From Burkholderiales bacterium (lineage in GTDB: Bacteria > Pseudomonadota > Gammaproteobacteria > Burkholderiales > SG8-39): a stretch of 64,000 nt of DNA. The position numbers were made by a program, and so were the translations under genes. The notes below the pieces were generated by a model. It was not told the origin of the DNA. It did not search any database and was given only the letters and a program-made list of their open reading frames with translations. Shown in pieces: positions 26,476 through 45,356 of this stretch; position 1 is the first letter of the stretch, and each line of letters begins with the position of its first letter. The stretch lies in assembly GCA_020848075.1 (NCBI GenBank), contig JADLAV010000084.1:4387-68386 (forward strand), given 5' to 3'.

Positions 26476-26994
26476 CTACATCGGCTCGTCCTTGAGCACG
26501 CCGCCGTCGAGCCGCACCATGTCGAGCGTGATCTCCTCGAAGCGCAGGACGCGCCCGCCGTGCGCGCGCGCGAAGGCCTGCGCGCCCTCGATCCGCGCGA
26601 AGGCGGCGAGCGTCGGCCCCATGCTCCCTTTCATGCGGCTGCCGTGCACGAAGAACGCGGTCCGCGCGTCGATCCAATGTCCCTGCGGGCTGTTCCAGTC
26701 GGTCTTGCCCATGTCCTGGGTGAACACGCCCACCACGCGCTTTCTCTGCTCCGGCTGCAGGTAGATCGACACGAGCTCCATCGTGTCGCAGAAGAAGTCG
26801 GGCTCGCCGCGGTCGTAGACGATCTGGCCTTTCGGGCCGGGGTAGTCGGCGAGGATCATGCCGTCGAGCGAGCACGCGGTCTGCCGCGTGATCTCCTGCG
26901 GCTGCGCCAGCTGGCGCTCCTCGCCGCAGCCGGCGAAGAAAGCGAAGAGGGCGAGCATCGCGGCGAGCCGCACGCCGTTCGCGGATGCGCTCAT
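26476..26994 (-). CDS. nosL: NosL copper-chaperone lipoprotein
   Basis: Trimmed to the ATG at 26994 (MSASANGVRLAAMLALFAFFAGC lipobox). ATGA overlap with the nosY stop. Confidence 0.85.
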   Translation of the reverse strand: MSASANGVRLAAMLALFAFFAGCGEERQLAQPQEITRQTACSLDGMILADYPGPKGQIVYDRGEPDFFCDTMELVSIYLQPEQRKRVVGVFTQDMGKTDWNSPQGHWIDARTAFFVHGSRMKGSMGPTLAAFARIEGAQAFARAHGGRVLRFEEITLDMVRLDGGVLKDEPM

Positions 26995-30023: not shown

Positions 30024-30028
30024 CGCCG

Positions 30029-30490
30029 CTAGTGGAGCCAGCGCAGCGCCGGGTGGCCACTCAGGAAGCTCAGCACGCCGGCGGTCTGCAGCACGGCGAA
30101 CAGCACCGCGCCGATGATGACGTTCTTGGTCGCGACGTACGCCATGAGGTCCGGCAGCGACGCCGGCCGGAAATGGCGCCGCCACCATGGCCCTTCCTTG
30201 ATCCACGGCCGGTACACGTAGCGGCACGCGACCTCGTAGATGCTCCAGCCGATCCACCACGCCGACACGATCGCGGGCCCCATGTGCCCGGTGCCGGCCA
30301 GCATCCACGCGACGGTGACGAGCACGGCGAGGCCGATCTCGGCGGCGCGCAGCGCCCCCGCCTTGCGGCCGAATCCCGGCCCCCATGGCAACAGGTGGAA
30401 CTTGAGCTCCTCCCACAGCCAGCGCGGCAGCGGGAGCGTCTCGTCGGCCGCGCGCGGCAGCGGCGCGCCGGGCGTCGCATTCGGATTCAT
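30029..30490 (-). CDS. Unassigned integral membrane protein (153 aa) between nosR and nosD
   Basis: The ATG at 30490 overlaps the nosR stop (ATGA). Hydrophobic segments IGLAVLVTVAWMLAG, AIVSAWWIGWSIY and NVIIGAVLFAVLQTAGVLSFL. I recognise no family. Confidence 0.6.
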   Translation of the reverse strand: MNPNATPGAPLPRAADETLPLPRWLWEELKFHLLPWGPGFGRKAGALRAAEIGLAVLVTVAWMLAGTGHMGPAIVSAWWIGWSIYEVACRYVYRPWIKEGPWWRRHFRPASLPDLMAYVATKNVIIGAVLFAVLQTAGVLSFLSGHPALRWLH

Positions 30491-32733
30491 GACTCCGAGA
30501 CCTCCGTGCGGGGAGCATCGCGAGCGCGATCGTCCTTTTCGCGGGCGCGACCGGCGGGCGTCGCGGACCCGGCGTCGCCGGTCGGCCTGATGGGAATGAA
30601 GTAGCCGTCCGCGCCGACCGGCGTCGCCGGCAGGCCGAGCCGCGCGCGCCGCTTGCGCTCCTGGGCGAGCGGCGGGCACGCGTGATCATCGTAATAGAGC
30701 GTCTGGCAGTCGAGGCAGAGGAGGCATTCGCGCTGATCGATGCGGCCGGCGTCGTCGATCGCAAGCGACGAGCAGCCCTTCTGGCACGCATGACAGGCGG
30801 TGCACTCGGCTTTGCGCTTGAGGCCGTAGAACCGGAACGTCGAAGGAATCGCGAGCCCGGCGCCGAGCGGACACAGGTACTTGCAGAACGGCCGTTCCGT
30901 GAAGAGCGCCAGGACGAAGAGCACGCACCAGTAGAGGACGAACGGCCACGCGCGGTTCCAGAAGCCGCCGACGAGGAACGTCGACTTGAACGGCTCCACC
31001 TCCGCCATCCGTTCCGCGAGGCCGATCGAGTAGAACGACACGGCGACGAGCGCTACGAACACGGCGTACTTCAGCCACTTCAGCCGGTCGTGCCAGACGG
31101 GCGGCAGCGCGAACTGGAAGCGGCGCAGGCCGGCGGCGCGCGCGAGGCGGAACGCGAGCTCGGTCATCGAGCCGTACGGACAGAGCCAGCCGCAGAAGAG
31201 CCCGCGCCCCCAGACGAGCACCGTCGTGATGGTGAACCACCAGAAGATGAAGATCAGCGGATCGTAGAGGAAGAGCTCCCATTTCCACTTGAAGAAGATC
31301 GAGTGGAACCAGGTGAGCACCTGCGTGATGCTCGGCTGCGCCATGGCGTAGGCGCCGGCGAAGCCGAGGCTCACCGACCATATCGCGTAGCGCGGAAGCT
31401 CCACCCAGCGCTTGTCCTTGCGCGTCGTGCGGCGCACGAGCCTGTCGCGCAGCGCGTAGACCACGGCGACCGCCGCGAGGAACAGCGCGAATGCGGCGAT
31501 CTCCAGCTTGCGGTCCCTCCACACCCGCAGCCAGGGCGGCGCCGGCCGCTCGACCCGCGGGCGCCCGCCTTCCAAGTAGCGCGCGGGCAGCCAGTACTCG
31601 CGGTCGAAGTTGGCGAATGTCTTGGCGCCGGTCTGCTTGTCGGTCGTGCTCGCCAGGAACACCAGGCTCCAGGGGTAGGCGGCGCTGAAGTTGCTCCCGC
31701 GCACGAGGAAGATCCCCGATTCCTTGTAGGTCGGCGCGCCCGCCGCGCGCACGCCGTACAGGTTGAAGTAGTCGGTGTCGCGGAAGGTGAAGGTGTCGAC
31801 GTCCTGCGCCACCTGGATCCGGTCGTAGATCCCGCCGCGCACGAACCCGGACCCCTTGAACGAGGCCGCACCGCGGCCGATGATGAAGATTGCGTGCTCG
31901 TCCGGCTTGAGGTCGGCCATCAACCGCCGGTAGCCGTCGTCGCCGAGGATGCTGCGGCCGATCGTCGGCACGTTGAGATACCCGAACCACAGGTCGATGT
32001 AGGGCTCGCCCGTGTCGTCGGCGCCGACGTCCTTCGGCCAGACCGTCAGGCGGCCGATGCTGCCTTCCTTGACGAGGGCATTCCAGTCGAGCGACTCCGA
32101 GACCGGAGCGAATACGGCCTGCGGCTTCGGCGTCGCCTTGATGAGCCCGACCTGCCGCGCGATCTCGTAGCCGGAGCGAAGGATCACCTGGTTCTCGGCG
32201 ATCACGGTCACCGTGGCGCCGCTGATCGCGTCGACCCCGACGTAGCCGGCCTCCTCGCGCGCCTTGCCCACCTCGATCTTGTCGCCGACGAACTTGCCGA
32301 CGTACTGCAAGGTGAACCTGGTGAGCTCGGACTCCGGGATCCCCACCAGCAGGATCGGCTCGCTGTGCCGCAGGATCCGCACGCCGGTGATGATCCCTTT
32401 CGCGTCCATGCCGATCAGCGTCACCACCGGCTTGCCGGAGTAGGCCGGGATGTCGACGATGTCGGTGGAGAGGAAGACGTACCCGGCGAGCGACTTGTGG
32501 TCGCCGTCGGTCTTGTAGCCCTCGACGTACGACGGGCGCCCCTTGCGGTGCGAGAAGCTGTCCGCGCCGGGCAGCACGTCGCGGCACGGGGCATAGGCGC
32601 AGAGATCGGGGTCGCGCGAGAGCTCTGCCGGGAGCGGCGCCTCGTAGGAGGTCGTCTTCGCGAAGGTCCCGCCCGGCAGCGCGGCGAGGAGCCCGCAGAG
32701 CGCGAGGCAGAGCAGCGTCCCGAACCGTCTCAT
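30487..32733 (-). CDS. nosR: NosR membrane flavo/iron-sulfur regulator-electron donor
   Basis: Trimmed to the ATG at 32733 (MRRFGTLLCLALCG...). FMN-bind region (VDAISGATVT), CX3CP motifs (CGWLCPYG, CKYLCPLG), and C-terminal ferredoxin motifs (CTACHACQKGC, CLLCLDC). Confidence 0.9.
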   Translation of the reverse strand: MRRFGTLLCLALCGLLAALPGGTFAKTTSYEAPLPAELSRDPDLCAYAPCRDVLPGADSFSHRKGRPSYVEGYKTDGDHKSLAGYVFLSTDIVDIPAYSGKPVVTLIGMDAKGIITGVRILRHSEPILLVGIPESELTRFTLQYVGKFVGDKIEVGKAREEAGYVGVDAISGATVTVIAENQVILRSGYEIARQVGLIKATPKPQAVFAPVSESLDWNALVKEGSIGRLTVWPKDVGADDTGEPYIDLWFGYLNVPTIGRSILGDDGYRRLMADLKPDEHAIFIIGRGAASFKGSGFVRGGIYDRIQVAQDVDTFTFRDTDYFNLYGVRAAGAPTYKESGIFLVRGSNFSAAYPWSLVFLASTTDKQTGAKTFANFDREYWLPARYLEGGRPRVERPAPPWLRVWRDRKLEIAAFALFLAAVAVVYALRDRLVRRTTRKDKRWVELPRYAIWSVSLGFAGAYAMAQPSITQVLTWFHSIFFKWKWELFLYDPLIFIFWWFTITTVLVWGRGLFCGWLCPYGSMTELAFRLARAAGLRRFQFALPPVWHDRLKWLKYAVFVALVAVSFYSIGLAERMAEVEPFKSTFLVGGFWNRAWPFVLYWCVLFVLALFTERPFCKYLCPLGAGLAIPSTFRFYGLKRKAECTACHACQKGCSSLAIDDAGRIDQRECLLCLDCQTLYYDDHACPPLAQERKRRARLGLPATPVGADGYFIPIRPTGDAGSATPAGRAREKDDRARDAPRTEVSES

Positions 32734-32836
32734 CGAATCGCCTCGCGCGCGGACGCTCCGCACGCTTCCGGGGTCCGCCTCGTGCATCGCCGCGTCTTCA
32801 CCTCCGTGTTTGAGTCTTCGTGTGCCGGCCGCGGGC

Positions 32837-33673
32837 TCAGCGGCCCTGCGTCCTCGCCTGCTTCTCGTAGAGCGCCACCAGCCGCTCGGTCGCGGCGAGG
32901 ATCCGCTCGCTCGACTCGATCACCTGCGGTGCGGCACGCCGCAGCGCGGCCGCGTCGTCATGTGCGGCGAGCGCCGCACGATAAGCGATCCACTCCCGGT
33001 CGAGCTCGCCCAGCGCGGCCTTGATGCGCTCGTCATCGCGGGACGCGACGAAGAGCTGGTGCATCGCAGAGGAGAACTCGGCGCGCGCCATGTCGAGCTC
33101 CATCCGCGCCGCTTGAGCGTTCACGTCGAACGCCTTGAAGAGGAAGTATTTCGCCATGCGCTGCGACAGCATCCGCTGCCGGCCGGCGATGTTCACCAGG
33201 CGGTCGGCCGGTTTGCCGGTCACCCGCTCGTAGGACAGGGTCAATCGGTGCGCGGCTTCCTGCACGGCTTCGTTGAGATCGTACACCTCCCTTGCGCTCT
33301 GGGCGGTGGGAGGAGCGGCGAGGACAGGCTTGAATCCGTTCCAACTGCGCTTGAGCGCTGCGAGCGCCCGTCGCACGTCCTCGCTCGGAACGAAACCAGC
33401 GAGCTCGGCGAGCTGCGCCTCGAACAAGGCGACCGACTCGCCGAGGATCGTCCGGCCACGCTCGGGCTGCACGTCCTGCCAGACCATGAGGTAGGCCTTG
33501 GCGAGCCGCTGCGACAGCATGCGCTGGCGGCCCGCCTTGTCGATGGCGGTCGCGGGTGCGAGCACGGCGGCAGCAGGGCCGGCGGCCGTGCCTGCGCCCG
33601 CCGGCGGCTGCGCTCCGGCGAGCCCCGCCCAGGCGAACCAGCAGCAGAGGAACGCGCCCAACCTTGCGCTCAT
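32837..33673 (-). CDS. Secreted PilJ/NarX-N-terminal-type sensor-domain protein with no output domain
   Basis: Signal peptide MSARLGAFLCCWFAWAGLAGA. Two copies of the P-box-like motif (AGRQRMLSQRLAKAYL and AGRQRMLSQRMAKYFLF). 278 aa. An alternative ATG is at 33706. Confidence 0.7.
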   Translation of the reverse strand: MSARLGAFLCCWFAWAGLAGAQPPAGAGTAAGPAAAVLAPATAIDKAGRQRMLSQRLAKAYLMVWQDVQPERGRTILGESVALFEAQLAELAGFVPSEDVRRALAALKRSWNGFKPVLAAPPTAQSAREVYDLNEAVQEAAHRLTLSYERVTGKPADRLVNIAGRQRMLSQRMAKYFLFKAFDVNAQAARMELDMARAEFSSAMHQLFVASRDDERIKAALGELDREWIAYRAALAAHDDAAALRRAAPQVIESSERILAATERLVALYEKQARTQGR

Positions 33674-33756
33674 TCGCGGCTCCGTCCGATCGTCCGCCCG
33701 CGTCATCGTTGCCGCGCGCGCGACGAAACCGGCGCCGCCCGCCGCGCCGCCGGCGC

Positions 33757-35697
33757 TCAAGCCTCCACCAGCAGCACGCTTCGCATCTCGAGGTGCAGGG
33801 CGTGGCAGAAGTGCGTGCAATAGCACCAGAACGCGCCCGGCTGGTCGGCCTTGAAAGTGACCGACTTCGTCTCCTGCGGATTGACGATGAAGTTGATGTC
33901 GTAGTCCGGGATCCCGAAGCCGTGCGTCAAGTCCTCGACCTTGTCGTGGTTGGTGAGGATGATCGTCACCTCGTCGCCCTTTTTCACCGTGAAGTTCGGC
34001 AGGCTGTAGGCAGGCGCCGCCGAGGCGAGGCGGATGGTCACCTGGTGCCCCTTGCGCTCGGGCGGCATCTCCTTGTACTCGCGCACCGCGTTCGGGAAAT
34101 CGTCCATGTTGTAGATCTGGCGCGTCTTCACGATATCGCGCCGGACGATGATGGCGTCGTGCGGCTCCGGATAGGCCGTGTGGTCGTGGACGAGGCGCAT
34201 CTTGTCGCCGCCGATGTCGATCAGCTGCTCGGTCTCGACGTGCAGCGGCCCGACCGGCAGGAAGCGGTCCTTGGAGAACTTGTTGCCGGAGTTGAACCAC
34301 TTGCCGTCGGCCTCCTTCGTCTCGCCCATCGAGGTGTAGCCGTGGCCCGGCTGATAGTGGACGTCGATGCGGTCGAGCACCACCTGCGCGCCCTTGTCGC
34401 CCTTGAACTGCGCGATCGCCTTGTCGAGGTTCCACTTCACGATCTGGCTGTCGAGGAAGAGCGTGGTGTAGGCGTTGCCCCTGTTGTCGAAGCCGGTGTG
34501 CAGCGGCCCGAGTCCGATCTCGGGCTCCGCCACCACCGCGTCGCGCGGCTCCTTCAACCCGCCGTCGAACCACTTCAGCACCAGCGCGTGCTCGATGACG
34601 GTCGCGGTCGGCGAGAGCTTGCCCGAGCAGACGTAGTATTTCCCATCGGGTGAGATGTTGATGCCGTGCGGGTTCTTCGGGACCGGGACATAGCACGTGA
34701 GCGCGGCCTTCGGATCCTGGTTCGCCGCCTTGGTGCCGTCGACCACCGGGACTTTCGATGCGCCGATGGTCGTGAACTTGCCCGCCTTGACCGCCGCCTC
34801 GATGCGTTCGACATGGAAGAAGACCGCCGAATCCCGCTCCGCGGACATCATTTCGGCGTACACGACCCCGCCCTCGGTGTTGTACTGGTTGGCGCCGGCG
34901 AGCTTGCCGTCGTAGGACGTCGCGACCAGGTCCATGTTGCCGTCGATCCGGCACTGCCAGCGCACTTCCATGGAACCCGCGTCGACGCAGGTGAAGAGGC
35001 AACCCCACTTCTTCGGATCCTTGAGGTCGCGCCCGTCGTTCGGCAGCGGGATGTGGAACTCGTTGCCGCAGAAGACGCGCGTCGTATGATCGATCTTCGG
35101 GTCGACCGGGTCGCGCTTGTCGGGGAAGATGCCGTGGAAGCCCTGCACGTTCGGCAGCTTGGTGATGTGATCGCACTCCATGGTGTCCATGCGGATGCGC
35201 GCGAGCCGCGAGTGCAGCTTGTCGTTCACCCACAGATACTTGCCGTCGTAGGTGCCGTCCTTGTACGAGCCGTGGACGTGGTGCGTGTCGCCGGTCTTGA
35301 AGAGCGGGTTGCCGTCCGGCCGGGTGCCGAGGATGGCCTTCGACTCGTTGGTGATGCCCCAGCCGACCATCGGATCGATGTTGAACACCGGGATGCGCTT
35401 GATCGTGCGCCCGGAGGGCAGCCCGTAGATGCGCACTTCGCCCGAGTGCCCGCCGCTCGAGAAGATGTAGTAGTCGTCGAGCTGGCCGGGCGGCACCTCG
35501 ACCTTCGCCGGCGTCGGCGCGGCTGCCGCCTTCGGCTCCGCAGCCTTCTCGGGAGCCTGCTCGCGCTGCTCGCACGCGGCGAGGAGCGACAGTCCTGCAC
35601 CGGCGATGCCGGCCGCCGCCGCCTGGTTGAGGAACTTGCGCCTGCCGCCGTCTTGCGGCTCGGGCGCTTCGGAGGGCGATGGGTTCTCGGTGGTCAT
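33757..35697 (-). CDS. nosZ: Nitrous-oxide reductase, Tat-dependent (clade I type)
   Basis: Trimmed to the ATG at 35697 (MTTENPSPSEAPEPQDGGRRKFLNQAAAAG twin-Arg signal). CuA site CYCTHFCHALHLEM at the C-terminus. Confidence 0.95.
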   Translation of the reverse strand: MTTENPSPSEAPEPQDGGRRKFLNQAAAAGIAGAGLSLLAACEQREQAPEKAAEPKAAAAPTPAKVEVPPGQLDDYYIFSSGGHSGEVRIYGLPSGRTIKRIPVFNIDPMVGWGITNESKAILGTRPDGNPLFKTGDTHHVHGSYKDGTYDGKYLWVNDKLHSRLARIRMDTMECDHITKLPNVQGFHGIFPDKRDPVDPKIDHTTRVFCGNEFHIPLPNDGRDLKDPKKWGCLFTCVDAGSMEVRWQCRIDGNMDLVATSYDGKLAGANQYNTEGGVVYAEMMSAERDSAVFFHVERIEAAVKAGKFTTIGASKVPVVDGTKAANQDPKAALTCYVPVPKNPHGINISPDGKYYVCSGKLSPTATVIEHALVLKWFDGGLKEPRDAVVAEPEIGLGPLHTGFDNRGNAYTTLFLDSQIVKWNLDKAIAQFKGDKGAQVVLDRIDVHYQPGHGYTSMGETKEADGKWFNSGNKFSKDRFLPVGPLHVETEQLIDIGGDKMRLVHDHTAYPEPHDAIIVRRDIVKTRQIYNMDDFPNAVREYKEMPPERKGHQVTIRLASAAPAYSLPNFTVKKGDEVTIILTNHDKVEDLTHGFGIPDYDINFIVNPQETKSVTFKADQPGAFWCYCTHFCHALHLEMRSVLLVEA

Positions 35698-35802
35698 CGG
35701 GTGGCCCCTTTTCCGGATGCAAGGAGAAACGGAAAACGCGCCTGCATGGCGCGAAGCAACGTCACGATGAATCGAAACTACGCCCAGCGAGCGCAGCGCT
35801 TG

Positions 35803-35816
35803 TTGATTTCTGTCAA
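35803..35816. promoter_or_regulatory. FNR/DNR/NnrR-type box TTGATTTCTGTCAA
   Basis: TTGAT-N4-GTCAA, centred about 112 bp upstream of the nosZ ATG. Confidence 0.65.
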
Positions 35817-35848
35817 GCGCGGTCGCGCCGCGGCGTCGGCGAATGCAT

Positions 35849-35862
35849 TTGATCTGTGTCAA
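35849..35862. promoter_or_regulatory. Second FNR/DNR-type box TTGATCTGTGTCAA
   Basis: TTGAT-N4-GTCAA, 46 bp centre-to-centre from the first box, in the nosZ / kinase divergent region. Confidence 0.65.
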
Positions 35863-36051
35863 GCTCGAGCGGACCGAGACGCGCCACAGTTCATTTGACG
35901 GCGCGAGCGCTGGCATCTGACGACACGGGAGGCGGCGCCGGTGTCGCAGGACACCGCGCCCGTGAAGCTCGTGTGGGGCCGTCGCTTCCGAGCTCCCGGT
36001 TGCGGGAGCTTGCGCGTTGCATGTGGAGGCTGCATCCTCCATCCTGTTCGC

Positions 36052-37977
36052 ATGCATACGCTCGTCGTCGCCGCGGCCTACGTCGTCGCATACGTCGCTC
36101 TCGACTGGGTGAGCTACATCCACCCGCTCGGACCGTTCGCGATTACGCCGTGGAATCCGCCGCCGGGCCTCAGTCTCGCGCTGCTGCTCGTGTTCGGTCT
36201 GCGGCTCGCCCCTGCCGTGCCGATCGCCGGGCTCGCCGCGGAGCTCGTTGTGCGGGGCTGGCCCGCGCACCCCGTGCCGGTAGTGATCGCGACGCTGGTC
36301 ATCGCTGCCGGCTACACGGCGACGGCGGCGTTCCTGCACGCGAGAGCGCGTGTCGACCCGGCGCTGGCGACAGTACGTGATGCGGTCTCGTTCATCGGCG
36401 TCGTGGCCATCGCGACGATGGTGATCGCCGTGGCGTACGTCCTCGTTCACGCGGCGTCCGGACAGATCGCCTGGGGGAACTTCGCGGTCTCCGCGCTGCA
36501 GCTGTGGGTGGGCGATGCGATCGGCATCCTCGTCACCACGCCGGTGCTCGTCCATCTCCTCGGTCCCGGGCGCCGCGCGGGGATGCGGCGCGCCGGCCGG
36601 GAAATCGCCGCGCAGGCGGTGGCGGTCGCGCTCGCGCTCTTCGTCGTATTCGGCATCGATGCGGCGAGCGCGGCGAAGTACTTCTACGTCCTCTTCCTAC
36701 CGGTGATCTGGGTGAGCATGCGCCACGGGGCGCCCGGCGCCGCGGTCGTGCTGCTCGCGATCCAGCTCGGGACCATCGTGGCGGTGCAGAGCGGCGCTTA
36801 TGCGTCCGCGACCGTGCTGGAATTCCAACTCTTCATGTCGGCGCTCGCGGTTACCGGCCTCGTCCTCGGGGCGGTGGTGAGCGAGCGGAGCCTTGCCCAG
36901 GATGCGGTCGCGGCCCGCGAGGCGCAACTCACCTCGGTGGTGCAGACCGCGCCGGACGGCATCCTCGTGCTCGACGAGCGCGGCCGCGTCCTGCGCGCCA
37001 ACGAGGCGGCCGGGGTCATGTTCGGCGCGGCTGCGCCGGCACTCGTTGGTCGCGCCGTGGCGGAGCTGATTCCCGGCCTCGCGCTGCACGCGTCGCCTGC
37101 TGCACGAGTCGAGCAGGCGGCGCGGCGCGTCGACGGCACACTGTTCCCGGCGGAGATCGCGATCGGTCGCAGCGCGGGCGGGGCGGAGCCGCTTTGCATC
37201 GCCATCCTGCGCGACGTCTCCGACCGGAAGGAGATGGAGAGTCAGCTGCGCGAGCGGGAGTCCGAGCTCGCGCGCAGCCTGCGCCTCGCCGCGGCCGCCG
37301 AGACGGCCTCCGCGCTCGCGCACGAGCTGAATCAGCCGCTGTCGGCGATCGGCAATTACGTGCGCGCCTGCGCGCTGCTCATGGAGAATCCGGACGCCAA
37401 CCGCGAGCGCCTCGTTTCCACGATACGCGCGGTGGTGGGCGAGGTCGGCCGGGCAGGCGAAGTGATGCGCCGGCTGCGCGAATTCTTCCGCAGCGGCGCC
37501 TCACGCCTGGAGCGTGTCGCGGTGGCCGAGCTCGTGCGCGGCGGCACGGCGCCGCTCGCGCAGCGCCTCGCGCGGCACCGCATCGCACTCGATACCGAGA
37601 TCGAGCTCGGACTCCCGGACCTGCTCGTCGACCGCCTGCAGATCGAAGCCGTGATGCACAATCTGCTGGCGAACGCGATCGAGGCGATCGCGAGCGGTGC
37701 GGGCGCCGGCGGGCGCATCGCGGTCCGCGCGACCCTCGTGGGTACGACGGTGCGCATCACGGTCAGCGACACGGGTCCTGGGCTGTCGGCGGAGCTCGCG
37801 CACCGGATGTTCAAGCCGTTCACCACGACCAAGGCGGAGGGCATGGGTCTCGGACTCGCGATCAGCCGCTCGATCATCGAGAATCACGGCGGCCGCCTGG
37901 TGGCCGAGCCCGCGGCGGCGGGCGCCGCTTTCTCCTTCACCCTGCCAATCGAAACCGCGGCGGAGGCCGCCGCATGA
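36052..37977 (+). CDS. Sensor histidine kinase, MASE1-like membrane domain + PAS + HisKA/HATPase
   Basis: Trimmed to the ATG at 36052 (MHTLVVAAAYVVAYVALDWVSYIHP...). PAS region, H-box SALAHELNQPLSAI, N box HNLLANAIEA, and DTGPGL / GMGLGLAIS. Confidence 0.85.
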   Translation: MHTLVVAAAYVVAYVALDWVSYIHPLGPFAITPWNPPPGLSLALLLVFGLRLAPAVPIAGLAAELVVRGWPAHPVPVVIATLVIAAGYTATAAFLHARARVDPALATVRDAVSFIGVVAIATMVIAVAYVLVHAASGQIAWGNFAVSALQLWVGDAIGILVTTPVLVHLLGPGRRAGMRRAGREIAAQAVAVALALFVVFGIDAASAAKYFYVLFLPVIWVSMRHGAPGAAVVLLAIQLGTIVAVQSGAYASATVLEFQLFMSALAVTGLVLGAVVSERSLAQDAVAAREAQLTSVVQTAPDGILVLDERGRVLRANEAAGVMFGAAAPALVGRAVAELIPGLALHASPAARVEQAARRVDGTLFPAEIAIGRSAGGAEPLCIAILRDVSDRKEMESQLRERESELARSLRLAAAAETASALAHELNQPLSAIGNYVRACALLMENPDANRERLVSTIRAVVGEVGRAGEVMRRLREFFRSGASRLERVAVAELVRGGTAPLAQRLARHRIALDTEIELGLPDLLVDRLQIEAVMHNLLANAIEAIASGAGAGGRIAVRATLVGTTVRITVSDTGPGLSAELAHRMFKPFTTTKAEGMGLGLAISRSIIENHGGRLVAEPAAAGAAFSFTLPIETAAEAAA

Positions 37978-38603
37978 GCGACGCGACGGTGTTCATCGTG
38001 GACGACGACGCGGGAATGCGCGACTCGCTCGCCATGCTGCTCGAGCTGAAGGGGTTCCATACGCGCACCTATCCGTCGGCGGAGGAGTTTCTCGCACGAT
38101 ACCGACCCGAATGGCCCGGGTGCGTCGTCCTCGATCTCCGCATGACCGGCATGAGCGGGCTCGAGCTCCAGGCCGAACTCGCGCGTCGCGGCATGGCCAT
38201 CCCCGTAATCATCGTCTCCGCGCACGGCGACGTACCGACCACGCGGATGGCGCTCAAGGGCGGCGCGGTGGATTTCATCGAGAAGCCGATCGATGACGGC
38301 ACGCTAGTCGCCGCGATCGCTGCTGCGCTCGACCGCGACGCGCGCGAGCGCCGGCAAGCGGCGGCGCGCACGCTCGCTATCGAGGGGCTCGCGCGTCTCA
38401 CGGCGCGCGAGCGCGAGGTCCTCGACCTCGTCGCCGACGGCAAGCACAATCGTGAGATCGCCGCGCTCCTCGGGATCAGCCCACGCACGGTCGAGGTGTA
38501 CAAGGCGCGATTGATGGACAAGCTGCAGGCGCGCCGCGTGACGGAGCTCCTCCGGCTGGTTCTCGCGGAAAAGCAGCCGCCGGAGGGCGATCTGCCCCGC
38601 TGA
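37974..38603 (+). CDS. FixJ/NarL-type response regulator (REC + LuxR HTH)
   Basis: MSDATVFIVDDDAGMRDSL...VLDLRMTGMSG...LTAREREVLDLVADGKHNREIA. The ATG overlaps the kinase stop (ATGA). Confidence 0.9.
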   Translation: MSDATVFIVDDDAGMRDSLAMLLELKGFHTRTYPSAEEFLARYRPEWPGCVVLDLRMTGMSGLELQAELARRGMAIPVIIVSAHGDVPTTRMALKGGAVDFIEKPIDDGTLVAAIAAALDRDARERRQAAARTLAIEGLARLTAREREVLDLVADGKHNREIAALLGISPRTVEVYKARLMDKLQARRVTELLRLVLAEKQPPEGDLPR

Positions 38604-38667
38604 TCGAAGGAGACGTCGGGCGCCTGCGCCTCCGGCGTAGCGGTCTGGTGGCTCTCGTGAGCCGCAA

Positions 38668-38686
38668 CGTAAGGGCAGCCCTTACG
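38668..38686 (+). terminator. Hairpin CGTAAGGG-CAG-CCCTTACG downstream of the response regulator
   Basis: Perfect 8-bp stem. Only a weak T-rich tail. Confidence 0.35.
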
Positions 38687-38785
38687 CGTAGTTCCGGATT
38701 TCGCCTTGCCGGCCCGTGCCTATGATCGGCCGGGTGGCGATTGCCCGTCCGCGGAACACGGTGCGATCGCGTTCCGGGAGCGACC

Positions 38786-38977
38786 ATGGGCATCATCGCG
38801 GACCTCGTACTCTGGATCACCGAACTCGACGCGTCATTCGCGTTCCTGCTCGCACTCCCGTTCGTCGTCGCGGCCGTCGGCTTGCTGGCGTCGCACCAGG
38901 AGTCGCGCGGCGGGCGCCGCGAAGCGCGCGCCGGCGCGGCCGACCGCGCACCGGGCCACCCGGCTCACGTGCGATAA
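38786..38977 (+). CDS. Possible small single-TM protein (63 aa)
   Basis: MGIIADLVLWITELDASFAFLLALPFVVAAVGLLASHQ.... GGGAG lies upstream of the ATG. The Arg/Ala-rich tail may be noise. Confidence 0.3.
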   Translation: MGIIADLVLWITELDASFAFLLALPFVVAAVGLLASHQESRGGRREARAGAADRAPGHPAHVR

Positions 38978-38999
38978 GCGTCTGCTGGTGGCGGACCCG

Positions 39000-40400
39000 A
39001 TGCGCAGAGCCGCACCCCGCGCTTCGTCGGCGCTCGTCGCGTGCGCCGCGCTGGCGGCGGTCCTCTTCAGCAGCGACGCCTGGGCGGCCGGATCGGACGC
39101 GAGCGCGCGCAGCTTCCTCTGGATCGCGGTGATCATCGTCGCCGCAAAACTCGGTGCGCTCGTCGAGCGCGTGCGTCAGCCGGTCGTCCTCGGCGAGATC
39201 GTCGTCGGCGTCCTTCTGGGCGGCCTCGCGCTCGCGGGGTTCGGATTTGTCGACGAGATCCGCAGCGACGCGGTCGTGCGGTTCCTCGGCGAACTCGGTG
39301 CGGTCGTCCTCCTCTTCCAGATCGGACTCGAGTCGAACGTACGCAGCATGCGCCGCGTCGGTCCGCGCGCTCTCTCGGTGGCGGCGATCGGCGTCGCCGC
39401 GCCGTTCGTCCTCGGCACGTACCTGGTCGGCCCGGTTCTGCTGCCCGGCATGAGCTTTGCGACGTACCTGTTCCTTGGTGCAGCGCTGACCGCGACGTCG
39501 GTCGGCATCACCGGCAGGGTGTTCCGCGATGCCGGGATGCTGCAGCGCCCGGAGGCGCAGATCGTGCTCGGTGCAGCCGTCATCGACGACGTCCTCGGCC
39601 TGGTGATCCTCGCGGTCGTCTCGTCCATCGCCTCGAAGGGCGCGGTCGACGCGGCGGGTCTGGGAATCACGGTCCTGCAGGCCCTCGGGTTCCTCGCGGG
39701 GGCGCTTGCCCTCGGACAGGCCGGTGCGCCGTGGCTCAACCGCGGCTTCGCCGCGATCAACCGCGGCGCCGGAATGAAGTTCACGGTCGCAATCGCGCTC
39801 TGCCTTGCGTTTGCCTACGTCGCCCACCTGATCGGGCTCGCGCCGATCGTCGGTGCGTTCGCCGCGGGCCTGATCCTCGATGAAGTGCATTTCCGGAACT
39901 TCGATGCGCCGCACATCCGCGACGAGCTCATCGCTGCGGTCGGCGAGGCCGACGCGCGTACGCGCGACCGGGTAATGCGGGTCGTCGAGCGCCACCGGGT
40001 CCGCCACCTCGAGGATCTGGTCGAGCCCGTGGGTCACTTCCTCGTCCCGATCTTCTTCGTGCTCGCCGGCATGCAGGTGAACCTCGAGGTGCTCGACGAC
40101 CCGTCCACCGTGGCCTTGGCTGCCGCGCTGACGGCGGTGGCGATCGCGGGCAAGCTCGTCTCCGGGCTCGCGGCGGGGAGTGTGAACCGCTGGATCGTCG
40201 GCTGGGGCATGGTCCCGCGCGGCGAGGTCGGGCTGATCTTCGCGTTCGTCGGCAAGGATCTCGGGGTGCTCGACGACCAGCTCTTCTCGACCATCGTCAT
40301 GATGGTCATCGGGACCACGCTGATCACCCCGCCGCTGCTGGCGCTGCTGCTGCGCCGGGTGCCGAAGGAAGCGCGCGCGCTCGATGCCGCGCGCGCCTGA
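39000..40400 (+). CDS. Cation:proton antiporter (CPA2 / Kef-type Na+/H+ exchanger family)
   Basis: Trimmed to the ATG at 39000. Polytopic; ...LGEIVVGVLLGG...LLFQIGLES...GAALTATSVGIT...VIDDVLGLVILA.... Confidence 0.85.
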   Translation: MRRAAPRASSALVACAALAAVLFSSDAWAAGSDASARSFLWIAVIIVAAKLGALVERVRQPVVLGEIVVGVLLGGLALAGFGFVDEIRSDAVVRFLGELGAVVLLFQIGLESNVRSMRRVGPRALSVAAIGVAAPFVLGTYLVGPVLLPGMSFATYLFLGAALTATSVGITGRVFRDAGMLQRPEAQIVLGAAVIDDVLGLVILAVVSSIASKGAVDAAGLGITVLQALGFLAGALALGQAGAPWLNRGFAAINRGAGMKFTVAIALCLAFAYVAHLIGLAPIVGAFAAGLILDEVHFRNFDAPHIRDELIAAVGEADARTRDRVMRVVERHRVRHLEDLVEPVGHFLVPIFFVLAGMQVNLEVLDDPSTVALAAALTAVAIAGKLVSGLAAGSVNRWIVGWGMVPRGEVGLIFAFVGKDLGVLDDQLFSTIVMMVIGTTLITPPLLALLLRRVPKEARALDAARA

Positions 40401-40444
40401 TTCCCGCGTCGCGTTCCTGCGCTCTGACCCGCCTCCCGCTCGCC

Positions 40445-40535
40445 GTGGCCGCCATGCGAGCGCCTTGGCTGCGACGACGGTGGGGCCTTTCGACAGTCCC
40501 TCGGTGGCGCGCACGCGGTCGGGCGTGATGCACGT
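40445..40535 (-). repeat. Diverged extra copy (ghost 3) of the pepN 3' terminus
   Basis: The minus-strand reading ..DRVRATEGLSKGPTVVAAKALAW compares with the true pepN C-terminus ..ERVRDTEGLSKDTTEVVTKAMA*. About 40 of 47 core nucleotides are identical by hand alignment. TGG sits where pepN has TAG. Confidence 0.6.
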
Positions 40536-40685
40536 GCAGCGACGGTCGCGCGAGGCGACGCAGATCAAAGACTGCGACGCGCGAATGTCGGAGAGTCGAC
40601 TTTCTTGCTGCGGCGGGGAAGGCGTGATCACAGATTTCCCGGTGGACGAGCGCTTCGGGGCGCCGCGAGCGCGCGATCCCGGCCA

Positions 40686-40883
40686 ATGAGCGCCTGGAGC
40701 TGCCCTCACCTCGAACACGACGGCACTTGTTCGCGCGTGCTTGGACGCCCGTGCGAGCTCGGCATGAAGGGTTGTGTGCTCGCCGGGCGCTTCGTGTTCG
40801 CCGACGAGAGCAAGAATGTCCGGCGCCGCAAGGAGGCGTCGTCGGATCCGCCGCCTGAGTGCAAGGAGCAAGAAGAGCACTGA
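40686..40883 (+). CDS. Small cysteine-rich protein (65 aa; C-x8-C-x7-C-x6-C)
   Basis: MSAWSCPHLEHDGTCSRVLGRPCELGMKGCVLAGRFVFADESKN.... Third-position GC is visibly lower than in neighbouring genes. No obvious RBS. Confidence 0.45.
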   Translation: MSAWSCPHLEHDGTCSRVLGRPCELGMKGCVLAGRFVFADESKNVRRRKEASSDPPPECKEQEEH

Positions 40884-40952
40884 GGCGCCCCGCGCCGGTG
40901 GCGTGCGAGGCTCGCGCGGGTGCGCCGGACGATGGCGAGAGCACTCTGGCGG

Positions 40953-41024
40953 GGCCTTCGCCGCTACCTCGGTGGTATCCTTCGAACACCCCTCGGTACC
41001 ACGCACGCGTTCGAGCGCGGCGCG
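40953..41024 (-). repeat. Diverged extra copy (ghost 2) of the pepN 3' terminus
   Basis: The minus-strand reading is ..[23 protein letters not shown]. About 59 of 73 nucleotides are identical to 42411-42483 by hand alignment. Confidence 0.6.
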
Positions 41025-41042
41025 ATCGGCGGGAGGCGACCG

Positions 41043-42371
41043 ATGGAACGACTCGCAGACAAGCACTTCACGCTCCCGCCGGCGCGGCTCGCGGCGATGG
41101 TCGAGGAGGCGCACGCGCGCACGGTCGCCTGTGTCGCGGACCTCCACGACGCGCAGCTCGAGGTGCCGCTGCTCGAGGTGGTGAACCCGTTCCGCTGGGA
41201 GCTCGGCCACTGCGCGTTCTTCTACGACGTGTTCGTGCTGCGCGTGCTGGAGCCGCGGCGCGCGCCGGTGATGGCGCGCGGCGACGACCTGTACGATTCG
41301 TTCAGCGTCGATCACGACGAGCGCTGGCGGCTCGACCTGCCCGATCGGCGCGGCACGCTCGATTACATGGAGCAGGTGAAGGATGCGGTGCTCGAGCGCC
41401 TGGTGCACGCCGCCGAGGACCCGGGCGAGACTTACCTGCACCTCCTCGCGCTCACGCACTCCGACATGCACTGCGAGGCGTTCACCTACATGCGGCAGAC
41501 GCTCGGCTACCCGCCGCCGCGCTTCCGCGCCGGGGGCAGCGCGGCGCCGGCGAAGGAGGCTGGGCTCTTGCGCGGCGACGCGACGATTGCCGGCGGCACT
41601 TTCGCGCTCGGCGCCGGTCCGGATGCGCCGTTCGTGTTCGATAACGAGAAGTGGGCGCACCCGGTCGCGGTCGCGCCCTTCCGGATCGCGCGCGCACCGG
41701 TCACCAATGCCGAGTTCGCCGCATTCGTCGCCGACGGCGGCTACCTCGCGCGCGCGCTCTGGAGCCGTCAGGGCTGGGGATGGCGCGCGCGGACCGGGGC
41801 GCTGCATCCGGCGTACTGGCAGCGCACCGACGGCGGCTGGCTGCGCCGCGATTTCGATCGCATGGTGGCGCTCGAGCCGCATGCTCCGGTGATGCACGTC
41901 ACCTGGTACGAGGCCGAGGCCTACTGCAAGTGGGCCGGACGGCGACTGCCGACCGAGGCCGAGTGGGAATTCGCCGCGAGCGCAGCGGCGAACGGGGCGG
42001 GCGACGCGGCGGCCAAGCAGAGATACCCCTGGGGCGGCGCCGATCCGAATGCAGAGCGGGCGAACCTGGACGCGGCGGCGATGGGCTGCACCGATGTCGC
42101 CGCGTTCCCGGCCGGCGACAGCGCGCACGGCTGCCGCCAGATGATCGGCAATGTCTGGGAGTGGACCGCGACGCCCTTCTATCCGCACCCCGGATTCGTG
42201 ATCGATTTCCCGTACAAGGACTATTCGGCGCCGTGGTTCGGCTACCGCAAGGTGCTGAAGGGCGGCGCGTGGGCGACGCGGCCGCGCTTCGCCTACACGA
42301 CGCTGCGCAACTTCTTTCCGCCGCACCGCAACGACGTGTACGCGGGCTTCCGGACCTGCGCGCTCGCGTAG
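41043..42371 (+). CDS. egtB: EgtB-type sulfoxide synthase (DinB-like + FGE-sulfatase domains)
   Basis: Trimmed to the ATG at 41043 (GGGAGG RBS). [10 protein letters not shown] and HSDMH iron-ligand contexts. C-terminal ...[18 protein letters not shown]...GNVWEWT.... Confidence 0.8.
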
Positions 42372-42402
42372 GGCGCCGGCGGGGCGCCGCGCCCGGCCTC
42401 GG

Positions 42403-45141
42403 CTACGCCATGGCTTTCGTCACCACTTCGGTGGTGTCCTTCGACAGCCCCTCGGTGTCGCGCACGCGCTCGAGCGCGGCGCGGGCATGCGCCTGCCGGC
42501 CGGCGTCGAATTTTCTCCAGCGATCGAATGCGCGCGCCATGCGGGCGGCGACCTGCGGGTTGAGCCGGTCGAGCGTGACCACCTGGTCGGCGAGGAACGC
42601 GTAGCCGGCCCCGTCCGCGGCGTGAAAGCGCACGTGGTTCGCCAGCGTGAAGCCACCGATCAGCGCATAGACTTTGTTCGGGTTCTTGAGCGAAAACGCA
42701 GGATGCGCAAGGAGGCGTCGCACTTCGGCGAGCGTGGCGGGCAGGCGGGAGGTCGCCTGCACGCGCAGCCACTTGTCCACGACGAGCGGCTCGCCCTGCC
42801 AGCGCGCGTAGAACGCATCGAGCGCTCCGGGCCGCTCGGGGCAGTCGCAGTTCGCCAGGATGCCGAGCGCGGCGATGCCGTCGGTCATGTTGCCGGCACG
42901 CTCGAGCTGCGTCACGGCGGTGGCACGCACCTCGTCGTCGGCGAGCTCCATCAGATAGGCGAGGCACAGATTGCGCAGCGCGCGCTTGCCGGCGCTCGCC
43001 GCGTCCGGGCTGTAGGGCCCGTGCACGGCGTGTGTCCGGTAGGCGGCAACGAGCTCCGGCCGCATGGCCCGCGCGAGATGCGCCGCGAGCGCGTTGCGCA
43101 CGGCGTGGATCGCGTCGGGATCGACGACGTCCATCTGCTCGGCGAGATGGATCTCCGAGGGCAGCGTGAGCGCCTCGGCCGCGAACGCCGGGTCCCGCGG
43201 CGCGTCGGCGAGCACGCGCGCGAACGCCGACACGAACGCGTCCGGAACGTCGAGCGCGCGCCCGGCGCGATGCGCCGCGACGCCCTGCATCAGCAGCCCC
43301 GTCGCGAGGCGCTGGCCCGCTTCCCAGCGATTGAACGGGTCCGCGTCGTGCGCCATCAGGTGCGCGAGCGCGGCGTCGCTGTAGCCGTGCTTCAGGATCA
43401 CCGGTGCCGAGAAGCCGCGGAGCAGCGACGGCACCGGCGCGGCCGGCACGTTCACGAAGGTGAAGCGCTCGGTTTCGCCCTTCACCGAGAGCACGCGCGT
43501 GGTTCCCGCAGCCCGCGTTTCCCCCTCGATCTGGAGCGGGGCGTCGCGCCCATCCGGGCCGACCAGACCCAGCGCCACCGGGATGTGGAACGGCAGCTTC
43601 GTCGCCTGTCCGGGCGTCGGCGGGCAGTGCTGCCTAAACGAGAGCGTATAGCGCTGGGCGGCTGCGTCGTAGGCGCCCTCGGCTTCCAGCACCGGCGTGC
43701 CCGCCTGGTCGTACCACCGCTTGAACTGGCCGAGGTCGATGCCGGAGGCGTCCGCCATCGCCTGCACGAAGTCGTCGCAGGTCACCGCCTGCCCGTCGTG
43801 CCGCTGGAAGTAGAGATCCATGCCGCGCCGGAACGCGTCTTTGCCGAGGAGCGTGTGGATCATGCGCACCACCTCGGCCCCCTTCTCGTACACCGTGGCA
43901 GTGTAGAAGTTCGTCACCTCGATGTACGACTGCGGGCGCACCGGGTGCGCCATCGGCCCCGCGTCCTCCGGAAACTGCGCGAGCCGGAGCCCGCGCACCT
44001 CGCGGATCCGCTGCACCGGTCGCGAGTACATGTCCGCGCCGAACTCCTGGTCGCGGAATACGGTGAGCCCCTCCTTGAGCGAGAGCTGGAACCAGTCGCG
44101 GCAGGTGACGCGGTTGCCGGTCCAGTTGTGGAAGTACTCGTGCGCGACCACGCGGTCGATATTCTGGTAGTCGAGATCGGTCGCGATATCCGGCCGCGCG
44201 AGCACGTACTTGGTGTTGAAGATGTTGAGCCCCTTGTTCTCCATCGCGCCCATGTTGAAGTCGCCGACCGCGACGATCATGTAGCGGTCGAGGTCGAGCT
44301 CGAGCCCGAACACCTCCTCGTCCCACTTCATCGCGCGCTTGAGCGCGCTCATCGCGAAGCGCGCTTCCTCGAGCTTGCCGGGCTCGACGTAGATTGCGAG
44401 CTGCGCGCGCTTGCCCGACATGGTGACGAAGTCCTCCTCGAGGCGATCGAGCCTTGCGGCGACCGCGGCGAAGAGGTACGAAGGTTTCGGGAACGGATCC
44501 TCCCACCGCACCCAGTGCCGGACACCCCCCTCCTTTTCAAGGAGGGGTGGCCGCGAAGCGGCCGGGGTGGTTTCGTCGTCTCCTTTGGAAGGAGGGGTGC
44601 CCTGCGCAGCAGGCCGGGGTGGTTCGAATCCGCACGCCACCCGATTCCCGTTCGAGAGTAGGTGCGGGCAGCGCTCGCGATCGGCACGGATGGTGCACGT
44701 GTAGCGCGCCATGACGTCCGGCCGGTCGATGAAGTACGTGATGCGCCGGAAGCCCTGCGCCTCCGACTGCGTGAAGTAGCCGTCCTTGGAGGCGTAGAGC
44801 CCCATCAGCTTCGTGTTCTTCTGCGGCTCGATGCGCACTGCGGTGGCGAGGCGGAACGCGTCGGGCACCGAGGTGATCGTGAGGCGCTCCGCGTCGACGG
44901 CGTACTCGGGCGGCTCGAGCCGCCGCCCGTCGAGCGCTACCGAGACGAGGGTAAGCTCGTCACCGTCCAGCACGAGCGGCGCCCGCGCGTCGCGCGCAGC
45001 CGGGTTGCGGCGAACCGTGAGCGTCGCGCGGACGAGGGCATGGTCGTCGTGGAGCGCGATGTCGAGCTCGACCGCCGGGATCAGGAACGCGGGCGGCGCG
45101 TAGTCCTTGAGGAGAATTGCAGTCGGTGCCGGGTCGCGCAC
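42403..45141 (-). CDS. pepN: Aminopeptidase N (M1 family)
   Basis: GAMENKG and HEYFHNWTGNRVTCRDWFQLSLKEGLTVF (HEXXH-18-E). A GTG start at 45141 with an AAGGAG RBS fits the conserved N-terminus (..ILLKDYAPPAF). Confidence 0.9.
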   Translation of the reverse strand: MRDPAPTAILLKDYAPPAFLIPAVELDIALHDDHALVRATLTVRRNPAARDARAPLVLDGDELTLVSVALDGRRLEPPEYAVDAERLTITSVPDAFRLATAVRIEPQKNTKLMGLYASKDGYFTQSEAQGFRRITYFIDRPDVMARYTCTIRADRERCPHLLSNGNRVACGFEPPRPAAQGTPPSKGDDETTPAASRPPLLEKEGGVRHWVRWEDPFPKPSYLFAAVAARLDRLEEDFVTMSGKRAQLAIYVEPGKLEEARFAMSALKRAMKWDEEVFGLELDLDRYMIVAVGDFNMGAMENKGLNIFNTKYVLARPDIATDLDYQNIDRVVAHEYFHNWTGNRVTCRDWFQLSLKEGLTVFRDQEFGADMYSRPVQRIREVRGLRLAQFPEDAGPMAHPVRPQSYIEVTNFYTATVYEKGAEVVRMIHTLLGKDAFRRGMDLYFQRHDGQAVTCDDFVQAMADASGIDLGQFKRWYDQAGTPVLEAEGAYDAAAQRYTLSFRQHCPPTPGQATKLPFHIPVALGLVGPDGRDAPLQIEGETRAAGTTRVLSVKGETERFTFVNVPAAPVPSLLRGFSAPVILKHGYSDAALAHLMAHDADPFNRWEAGQRLATGLLMQGVAAHRAGRALDVPDAFVSAFARVLADAPRDPAFAAEALTLPSEIHLAEQMDVVDPDAIHAVRNALAAHLARAMRPELVAAYRTHAVHGPYSPDAASAGKRALRNLCLAYLMELADDEVRATAVTQLERAGNMTDGIAALGILANCDCPERPGALDAFYARWQGEPLVVDKWLRVQATSRLPATLAEVRRLLAHPAFSLKNPNKVYALIGGFTLANHVRFHAADGAGYAFLADQVVTLDRLNPQVAARMARAFDRWRKFDAGRQAHARAALERVRDTEGLSKDTTEVVTKAMA
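44525..44624. repeat. Two tandem double-hairpin repeat units inserted in frame inside pepN
   Basis: CCCCCCTCCTTTTCAAGGAGGGGTGGCCGCGAAGCGGCCGGGGTGGTT, then TCGTCG, then TCTCCTTTGGAAGGAGGGGTGCCCTGCGCAGCAGGCCGGGGTGGTT. Translated within PepN as ..PPRPAAQGTPPSKGDDETTPAASRPPLLEKEGG... Confidence 0.7.
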
Positions 45142-45356
45142 GGGTCGAGGCTCCTTGGTGCCGGTGATTTCGGGGCGTCGCGGCGCGCGCCGGCCACATG
45201 ACAATGCACACCATCGGGACCGCGGCGGTTCGCTCCGCCCGAATGTTGGCACGATCTCGCGCCGCGCGGGCAGCAGCGCGCGGGACTCCGGTCCGTTGCT
45301 GCCGCAGGATGCTGCGCGTATGCTCGGCCTGACACGGTCTTACGCCTCGCACGCCA

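Follow-up and report, generated by a model that had tools for sequence, protein, structure and literature searches.

Three copies of the pepN 3' end bracket two single-gene modules within a lineage-specific insert in a Burkholderiales genome

We analysed a 64,000-nt stretch, hereafter the window, of contig JADLAV010000084.1 from assembly GCA_020848075.1, a metagenome-assembled genome (MAG) of a Burkholderiales bacterium. The window has a G+C content of 69%, and in it the 3' end of pepN, the gene for aminopeptidase N, is present three times. One copy closes the intact gene and is here called the live copy; the other two, ghost 2 and ghost 3, lie further downstream. Between the three copies are found a gene for a 65-aa protein with four cysteines and a gene of the EgtB/SenA/OvsA family of sulfoxide/selenoxide synthases (Table 1). 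The pepN coordinates given are those of its longest open reading frame (ORF), as the start codon is uncertain (45252, 45204 or 45141); the protein is 86% identical in amino acids to P0454.

Table 1. Features of the pepN locus (positions in the window) and comparable repeats at three other loci (positions in the respective locus)
Feature	Position	Strand	Remarks
pepN (aminopeptidase N)	42403..45252	-	NCBIfam TIGR02414 pepN_proteo, 1246 bits; Pfam Peptidase_M1, DUF3458, DUF3458_C
Live terminal unit of pepN	42403..42483	-	Final 81 nt, TAG stop included; serves as repeat reference
Ghost 2	40944..41024	-	Decayed copy of pepN positions -80..0; GAG replaces the stop
Ghost 3	40452..40525, weaker match from 40436	-	Decayed copy of pepN positions about -73..0; TGG replaces the stop
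Perfect 14-nt palindrome CGCGCTCGAGCGCG	42465..42478	.	pepN positions -76..-63
EgtB/SenA/OvsA-family sulfoxide/selenoxide synthase	41043..42371	+	Pfam DinB_2 and FGE-sulfatase; NCBIfam SenA
65-aa four-Cys ORF	40686..40883	+	Conserved small-protein family, MSGWGCPHE..C..PCDPGMKGCVLAGRF
Lineage-specific segment of ~16 kb, pepN stop to gcvT promoter	26440..42386	.	Missing from five closest-relative contigs
CPA2-type cation:proton antiporter	38706..40400	+	Pfam Na_H_Exchanger
Native gcvT leader	26198..26439	-	Promoter-like GGTGCTAGACT and tandem glycine riboswitch (26198-26425)
pepN-tail ghost, locus L129	8290-8498 and 10617-10880		Second tail 2.2 kb downstream of the live end
Direct repeat, locus L082	9105-9239 and 11514-11614		102 nt, 82% identical; brackets yceI and a senA homologue
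Direct repeat, locus L083	17642-17780 and 19816-19952		139 nt, 87% identical; brackets a single DUF1016/YhcG nuclease-like gene

The three copies lie in one orientation, ungapped and in register, at offsets of +492 and +1459 nt, much as an earlier note on this DNA had described them. Using blastn within the window, we found that the live copy (42412-42483) is identical to ghost 2 (40953-41024) at 59 of 72 nt (82%, E = 2.5e-16) and, over 42429-42476, to ghost 3 (40478-40525) at 41 of 48 nt (85%, E = 1.2e-10); a longer span of ghost 3 (42387-42476 against 40436-40525) is identical at 63/90 (70%). Reading frame and peptide are conserved among the three copies, and the minus-strand translations of the earlier note hold, including the TGG that stands for the stop codon in ghost 3: the live tail ends ALERVRDTEGLSKDTTEVVTKAMA before its stop, and the tail of ghost 3 ends DRVRATEGLSKGPTVVAAKALAW. 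The self-comparison and BLASTN search with the unit that the earlier note had proposed, run on the window as a sensitive blastn, a search allowing up to three mismatches and a whole-window self-comparison, yielded these three copies and no fourth in the 64 kb, the next best match having E ~1e-3.

A G+C content of 69% and an origin in a MAG invite the suspicion of chance similarity or of faulty metagenome assembly. The data refute both, and we give them practically no weight: the E-values of the two matches stand against a background of 1e-3, and the copies have kept frame and peptide. An assembly artefact is unlikely because the longest exact run common to two copies is 14 nt and because the same arrangement, at 99.6-100% identity, is found in three further assemblies (Logan SRR11294019, Logan SRR24928198 and GCA_009612915.1), which with the window make four independent ones. 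An identity of the unit as a dispersed repeat, such as a repetitive extragenic palindromic (REP) element or a miniature inverted-repeat transposable element (MITE), was rejected as well, since its only three copies in 64 kb are all at pepN and since outside the window it matches pepN tails only. An extension of the unit over the ~16-nt spacer after the stop, with the live spacer taken as native, was also set aside: the similarity of the spacers is not significant (P about 0.05, empirical test), and the orthologous post-stop spacers of two related contigs, L166 and L172, are alike at only 7/16 positions.

The window does contain a REP-like family, but one without relation to the pepN-end unit. 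One palindromic element of this kind (CCCCTCC..GGAGGGG with a GGCCGCGAAGCGGCC hairpin) lies within pepN at 44521-44644, where it is inserted in frame and adds 31 aa (FEPPRPAAQGTPPSKGDDETTPAASRPPLLEK) to PepN that are lacking in the closest relative (86% aa). Its kin are found at 8732-8853, 10170-10291 and 24925-25036, and the family occupies intergenic spacers, the one separating gcvT from gcvH being an example; L166 has it too.

For either ghost, the best match beyond the window is the pepN tail of the nearest relative, L166 (77%, slightly below the match to the live copy). As the best outside matches are pepN tails of nearest relatives, the extra copies are, as had been claimed, true pepN ends; their clade is that of the window. 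At 72/84 nt (86%), the identity of the live tail to that of L166 equals the level in the rest of the gene (87-89% nt) and is thus no sign of import. The earlier note had incoming DNA supply a replacement end to pepN; nothing shows so, given the affinities of the live tail and of the ghosts, and local or conspecific duplication explains the pepN-end copies equally well.

Differences from the live copy at codon positions 1/2/3 number 4/5/10 in ghost 2, 7/6/12 in ghost 3 and 2/0/10 in L166. The divergence of the ghosts at first and second positions (17% in ghost 2 and 24% in ghost 3) is comparable to the third-position divergence between the window and L166, which dates the duplications to roughly the time of that split. 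With 18-30% divergence in the ghosts, the insertion events are old and do not represent recent mobility. Over 75 nt, ghost 2 differs from the live copy at 18 sites and ghost 3 at 21, and ghost 2 shares two states with the live copy (at -45 and -15). This would fit an order in which the outermost ghost is the oldest; however, the signal is weak and partly conflicting, as position -17 groups the live copy with L166, and -19 and -3 are common to both ghosts. Two further approaches were discarded: a phylogenetic placement of the ghosts from the 75 sites, in which shared states are no commoner than chance, and the codon-position spectrum as a test of foreign origin, which is uninformative for these ghosts once the synonymous change of the live lineage is allowed for.

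The spacers between the copies, of 417 nt and 1378 nt, are each filled almost exactly by one gene, giving modules of 0.5 kb and 1.46 kb with a single gene in each. Both genes are convergent with pepN and closely packed. The four-Cys ORF, ~160 nt downstream of ghost 3, belongs to a family of 90 representative clusters (E<=1e-3), all of small proteins and aligned over residues 1-50; neither a Pfam nor an NCBIfam model matches it. The start codon of the synthase gene lies 18 nt from the boundary of ghost 2, with GGGAGG at 41031-41036, and 31 nt separate its stop codon from that of pepN; ghost 2 today simply forms its 5' leader region. The gene had been labelled egtB, and here the earlier note needs correction: its product passes the NCBIfam SenA model (NF041186, 483.9 bits, cut-off 420) and fails that of EgtB (TIGR03440, 312.6 bits, cut-off 360). 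Among solved structures the best match is OvsA 8ux5, an ovoselenol selenoxide synthase (318 bits), followed by EgtB (251) and Variovorax SenA (225). We refer to the gene provisionally as senA, following the NCBIfam model. A sen cluster consists of senA with senB (Se-glycosyltransferase) and senC (selenophosphate synthetase) (bioRxiv 10.1101/2022.04.13.486033). The ORFs scanned in the 64 kb included no senB-like, senC-like or ovsS/ovsP partner gene. A gene for an EgtD-type histidine methyltransferase (Methyltransf_33, E 1e-106) is located at 59360-60490 on the plus strand, 17 kb from senA and unlinked to it; the usual pairing of egtB with egtD is broken in the window.

The contents of the spacers bear on a local origin of the array. 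Local tandem duplication of the pepN end with downstream DNA, through unequal crossing-over or slippage and with the spacer content then replaced by new genes, would account for the shared register and orientation of the copies and for their belonging to the window's own clade. However, spacers 40526-40943 and 41025-42402 showed no similarity to each other, each is occupied by one unrelated gene, and two extra precise replacement events would be needed, so that we consider this origin very improbable.

The position of the ghosts ahead of the two genes suggests another possibility, compatible with any origin, namely that the copies were retained for a function, either as leader or promoter of senA and the small ORF or as a source of plus-strand RNA antisense to the end of the pepN mRNA. 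Ghost 2 lies close to the senA start codon and ghost 3 not far from the small ORF, and the 80-nt relics have persisted over roughly the time since the nearest relatives split off. However, a search for promoters, terminators and Rfam families in the ghosts found none, the ghost units do not form stable hairpins (folds no better than those of shuffles, z-scores +1 to +2.6), and substitutions are spread over all codon positions, as neutral decay predicts. We therefore regard retention for a function as doubtful.

Comparison with relatives shows how much DNA has been added at this site. In the five closest-relative contigs (L166, L172, L173, L174 and L086; pepN 76-89% aa identical), gcvT-gcvH-gcvP follows directly after pepN. 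L172 is collinear with the window on both flanks of the site, the order being acyl-CoA dehydrogenase, thiolase, enoyl-CoA hydratase, thioesterase, hydrolase, Band 7, NfeD and pepN on one side and gcvT, gcvH and gcvP on the other. The gcvT leader, whose riboswitch is formed by two Rfam RF00504 aptamers (50.1 and 48.7 bits) and is conserved with L166 and L172, lies in the relatives 16-19 nt past the pepN stop. As the relatives run from pepN directly into this leader, ~16 kb has been added in the window between the pepN stop and the gcv promoter, in agreement with the earlier note's claim of added DNA at the pepN end. That note had asked for empty sites and for intermediates in related genomes; the empty site is present in all five contigs, whereas no intermediate with a single insert was found, exact-protein look-ups with senA, the small ORF, the antiporter and pepN relatives returning only identical arrangements or unrelated contexts. 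The note had named two observations as decisive against serial insertion, extra copies that belong to a dispersed repeat family unrelated to pepN, and related genomes that share the triplication without presence/absence polymorphism of the intervening genes; neither was made.

senA and the small ORF are missing at the pepN site of the relatives, and the closest SenA homologues (77-80% aa) are found in four different, unrelated contexts, none of them near pepN. Since, in addition, egtD is unlinked, senA arrived by insertion, as the earlier note had concluded for its egtB; an orphan gene of the EgtB/SenA/OvsA type has thus travelled as a one-gene module. The view of the two modules as insertions stands in so far as they are inserted DNA; however, they make up no more than the pepN-proximal part of the ~16-kb insert, a stretch of 2 kb to which the ghosts are confined.

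On its minus strand the insert carries nosZ, nosR, nosD, nosF, (nosY) and nosL, and on its plus strand a MASE1/PAS sensor kinase, a FixJ-type response regulator, a small ORF, the CPA2 antiporter, the four-Cys ORF and senA. The nos cluster (26440-36555; nosZ, nosR, nosD, nosF and nosL) appears complete. As it is part of the 16 kb missing between pepN and gcvT in the closest relatives, nitrous oxide (N2O) reduction looks like a lineage-specific acquisition at this site. The antiporter is the last gene of a block formed with the sensor kinase, the response regulator and the small ORF, and its stop is 51 nt from the pseudo-stop of ghost 3; in other relatives the kinase-regulator-antiporter block lies beside an alpha/beta hydrolase gene, not beside pepN. 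The pepN-gcvT interval is a lineage-specific accretion hotspot. At least three additions built the region, two of which left measurable scars, and the locus is a clean, datable record of an accessory region growing between the conserved pepN and gcvTHP operons.

We examined the boundaries of the ghosts for traces of the events that produced them. Homology to pepN begins at -80 in ghost 2 and at about -73 in ghost 3, in both cases at or within 5 nt of the pepN-body side of a perfect palindrome in the live unit. A fixed recombination site, or one propagated founding unit, explains these boundaries better than independent events do, because two random ends or deletion points rarely coincide so closely. 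The palindrome, one of only 17 perfect ones of >=14 nt in the 64 kb, is suggestive; however, such palindromes also arise in GC-rich coding DNA. The boundary sequences read GCGCG/ATCGG and GGGCG/TGATG (boundary at the slash), without a GTTRRRY core.

A survey of 160 other pepN loci (80 genomes and 80 metagenome contigs) revealed a second pepN tail in one only, L129. With ghosts lacking at the other 159 and no viral contig found to carry a pepN end, pepN is not a common attachment site. The L129 ghost consists of a 47-nt internal piece of pepN fused to the last 215 nt of the gene, which implies an internal deletion of ~0.9 kb. Live tails from a different clade (L088, L098, L101, L103 and L127) match it at 87-90% identity, the tail of its own locus at only 70%, and its differences are skewed to third codon positions (13/14/35), the spectrum being informative in this case. 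Between the two tails are small stress genes (ArsC-like, hemerythrin and CMD) and no integrase. Its closeness to the other clade, the third-position bias and the fused internal fragment identify the L129 ghost as a trimmed relic of imported pepN DNA.

Such a relic raises the question of whether the ghosts in the window are likewise remnants of longer foreign or duplicated pepN fragments, trimmed to ~80 nt by later deletions that the palindrome may have favoured. L129 is exactly a relic of this type. In the window, however, two independent trimmings would have to stop within 7 nt of one another, the self-comparison revealed three tails and no other pepN-internal piece beside ghost 2 or ghost 3, and the senA start codon lies close to the ghost 2 boundary. 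We think this explanation unlikely.

A better case can be made for an origin of the same architecture without a dedicated recombinase, in which DNA from a conspecific or close relative, carrying a short piece of the pepN end beside a new gene, would have entered by RecA-dependent insertion-duplication, with one crossover of a circularised fragment, or by homology-facilitated illegitimate recombination with pepN as the anchor. No recombinase was found in the window ORFs scanned, the live tail and both ghosts are of the window's own clade, the composition of senA is native, and the L129 ghost, which comes from another pepN lineage, shows that imported pepN-bearing DNA does land near pepN. On the other hand, ~80 nt of homology is a poor substrate for RecA, two separate events with random ends are unlikely to place them both at a palindrome and only ~7 nt apart, and the L129 boundary is a different one (-206, with an internal fragment). 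Recombinase-free insertion is accordingly possible, though we hold it to be the less probable route.

A scan for repeats in the 171 loci that we fetched (2.2 Mb) added two scars with two copies each, at loci L082 and L083. In L082 the repeat corresponds to positions 1-38 of tRNA-Val(CAC), ending exactly at the anticodon loop, with ~60 nt of upstream sequence; an intact tRNA-Val is retained on one side of the 2.3-kb module, the ghost lies just upstream of gltX on the other, and the module has no integrase. The senA homologue within it is 79% aa identical to that of the window. This repeat emerged only from the wider scan, flanking repeats within +/-600 nt of other senA homologues having been sought and none found. 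In L083 the repeat spans the convergent ends of the genes for cob(I)alamin adenosyltransferase (cobO) and a GlcD-like FAD oxidase; each of these retains one intact end and has one ghost end, and the module between them is again free of integrase. In these genomes, gene gain thus leaves such scars repeatedly, if at low frequency. The boundary is at a dyad-symmetric site in two cases; such sites are a classical preference of tyrosine integrases. In the metagenomic contig L074, a 113-nt repeat (99% identity) flanks the whole of pepN (9674-9786 and 12668-12780); its third copy in that locus suggests that it is not a gene-end scar but an element of the MITE or REP type.

On balance we favour an explanation of ghosts 2 and 3 as old scars, left when DNA was inserted twice in succession at the end of pepN, that is, as a decayed accretion array like those of cis-mobilizable elements (CIMEs), built by a recombinase that was lost or acted in trans; we consider it probable, though by no means secure. 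In each event, a small DNA carrying one gene and a copy of the last ~75-80 nt of pepN would integrate by a single reciprocal crossover inside the terminal unit (Campbell-type), via a circular intermediate. The terminal unit would then stand on both sides of the insert, pepN retaining an intact end, and the redundant distal unit would decay and lose its stop codon. New inserts would enter beside pepN and leave the outermost ghost as the oldest; the four-Cys ORF would have entered first and the SenA-type gene later. The crossover would have been the work of a site-specific recombinase, supplied in trans or since lost, an enzyme we prefer to recombinase-free routes because both ghost boundaries abut the palindrome and because the L082 scar ends exactly at the tRNA anticodon loop.

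Serial insertion at a gene end, as the earlier note had it, is thus partly upheld, by the pepN tails, the added DNA and the empty site; the intermediate, the integrase and the foreign composition that might be expected were not seen, and the replacement end lacks evidence. Several observations weigh against the explanation that we favour. No recombinase, transposase, phage or conjugation domain was detected in ~50 ORFs scanned (all of 26440-42386 and ~40 others of the window), which agrees with the remark in the note that no integrase is visible; the window has no tRNA gene, and we found no viral contig with a pepN end. Neither presence/absence polymorphism nor a circular junction was found, four assemblies having the identical arrangement, and the closest relatives display the absence of the whole 16 kb only, not a single-insert intermediate. 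No pepN ghost is present at the far (gcv-promoter) end of the insert, and the outermost ghost adjoins a 14-kb block rather than ancestral downstream sequence. The two ghost boundaries differ by about 7 nt, the ghost units lack stable hairpins, and the live tail is without any sign of foreign origin. The copies, with stop codons lost, are only 70-82% alike and therefore cannot function as sites any more. The insert is not atypical in composition or codon usage: the 16 kb have 69.6% G+C against 68-70% in the flanks, and senA has a third-position G+C content (GC3) of 0.91 and a value of 0.70 on a scale like the codon adaptation index (CAI), equal to flanking genes, so that the proposed comparison of egtB and the small ORF with their flanks revealed no anomaly. 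Lastly, 159 of the 160 other pepN loci have no second tail.

A more speculative reading, which we think highly unlikely, would do without integrases altogether: small circles, each of one gene with ~80-140 nt of a host gene end, would be added singly at gene ends on being caught at dyad-symmetric sites. The dyad sites would be the pepN palindrome, the tRNA anticodon loop and the overlapping convergent gene ends, and the capturing agent either an enzyme of the host or a recombinase, so far unrecognised, that acts in trans. Were integrase-independent addition real, cassette-like arrays would grow at their gene-proximal end and leave both neighbours intact, and the two events in the window, L082 and L083 would be products of a single process, common in these Burkholderiales-like genomes. 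Should repeat-bracketed one-gene modules without integrase prove common, of which four or five were seen in 2.2 Mb of related DNA, they would indicate an under-appreciated route of gene gain. The candidate routes are integrative elements decayed to cargo and attachment (att) scars, and recombinase-free insertion-duplication.

Two further features of the window lie away from the pepN locus. Three paralogous genes for UbiD-family decarboxylases are present (919-2430, 13887-15581 and 15620-17125), two of them in tandem, with 57-63% nt identity between them. A near-perfect 76-nt inverted repeat (2517-2592, 79% self-complementary) occupies the spacer between a UbiD gene and a gene for a PEP-utilising enzyme.

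Judged as an integrative element, the pepN locus has direct repeats of the target-gene end in flanking position, three pepN ends bracketing two modules; no recombinase was found inside the element, no presence/absence variation or circular form was seen among four assemblies, and the composition is not atypical. With integron cassette arrays it shares promoterless single-gene units in one orientation, a repeat after each and, as proposed, growth at one end; unlike them, it has no intI, attI, attC hairpin or GTTRRRY core, and its repeat is a piece of a housekeeping gene. Campbell-type insertion-duplication and homology-facilitated illegitimate recombination, the latter in natural transformation, require only a short anchor, which a single crossover duplicates, and no enzyme of an element; both are known mainly from laboratory constructs. 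Two events with nearly one boundary at a palindrome are not predicted by either process.

In the icd gene of E. coli, prophage e14 and phage 21 supply an alternative 3' end, and the displaced end stays as a pseudogene. As at the pepN locus, a second, substituted version of a 3' end (there of ~100-165 nt) has arisen, and the gene stays functional while the displaced copy decays. However, e14 and phage 21 are prophages, whether complete or defective, that measure many kb and have an integrase beside the att site, whereas phage genes are absent from the pepN locus and no viral contig was found to carry a pepN end.

Closer parallels are offered by accretion at single genes. Downstream of ssrA in Dehalococcoides, islands lie in tandem, each bounded by a direct repeat of the 3' end of the gene, and some are without integration genes and thought to be fixed (PMC3146451). 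Tandem, repeat-bounded islands at one gene, some integrase-less, are common to that system and the pepN locus; in Dehalococcoides, however, a tmRNA gene supplies a repeat of 20 bp, most islands have a serine-recombinase module, and strains vary in content. Tandem accretion arrays with CIMEs also occur at the 3' end of a protein-coding gene, as in those related to ICESt1 in fda of Streptococcus thermophilus (PMC5704250). Both the reduction of integrated elements to CIMEs that lack an integrase but keep flanking att sites and the accretion of elements in tandem at a gene 3' end are documented (PMC5704250; PMC3146451). The pepN locus resembles such arrays in its several direct copies of a target-gene end in one orientation, with integrase-less modules between them and the gene intact; in such arrays newer elements enter at an att site that includes the gene end, as we propose for pepN. 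Like a CIME, it has retained flanking repeats and is missing mobility genes. It differs in that no integrase-bearing partner element is visible in the window, no conjugation or mobilisation gene is present, the modules are single genes, the sampled strains show no polymorphism, and the repeats, 18-30% diverged, are no longer usable, whereas the att copies of a CIME are alike enough to recombine (here 70-82% identity, stops lost). The type of scar is thus already known, and what is unusual here is the tiny, single-gene inserts without a mobility gene, set within a larger 16-kb accretion; the finding so far amounts to a tidy but ordinary case of known genome plasticity.

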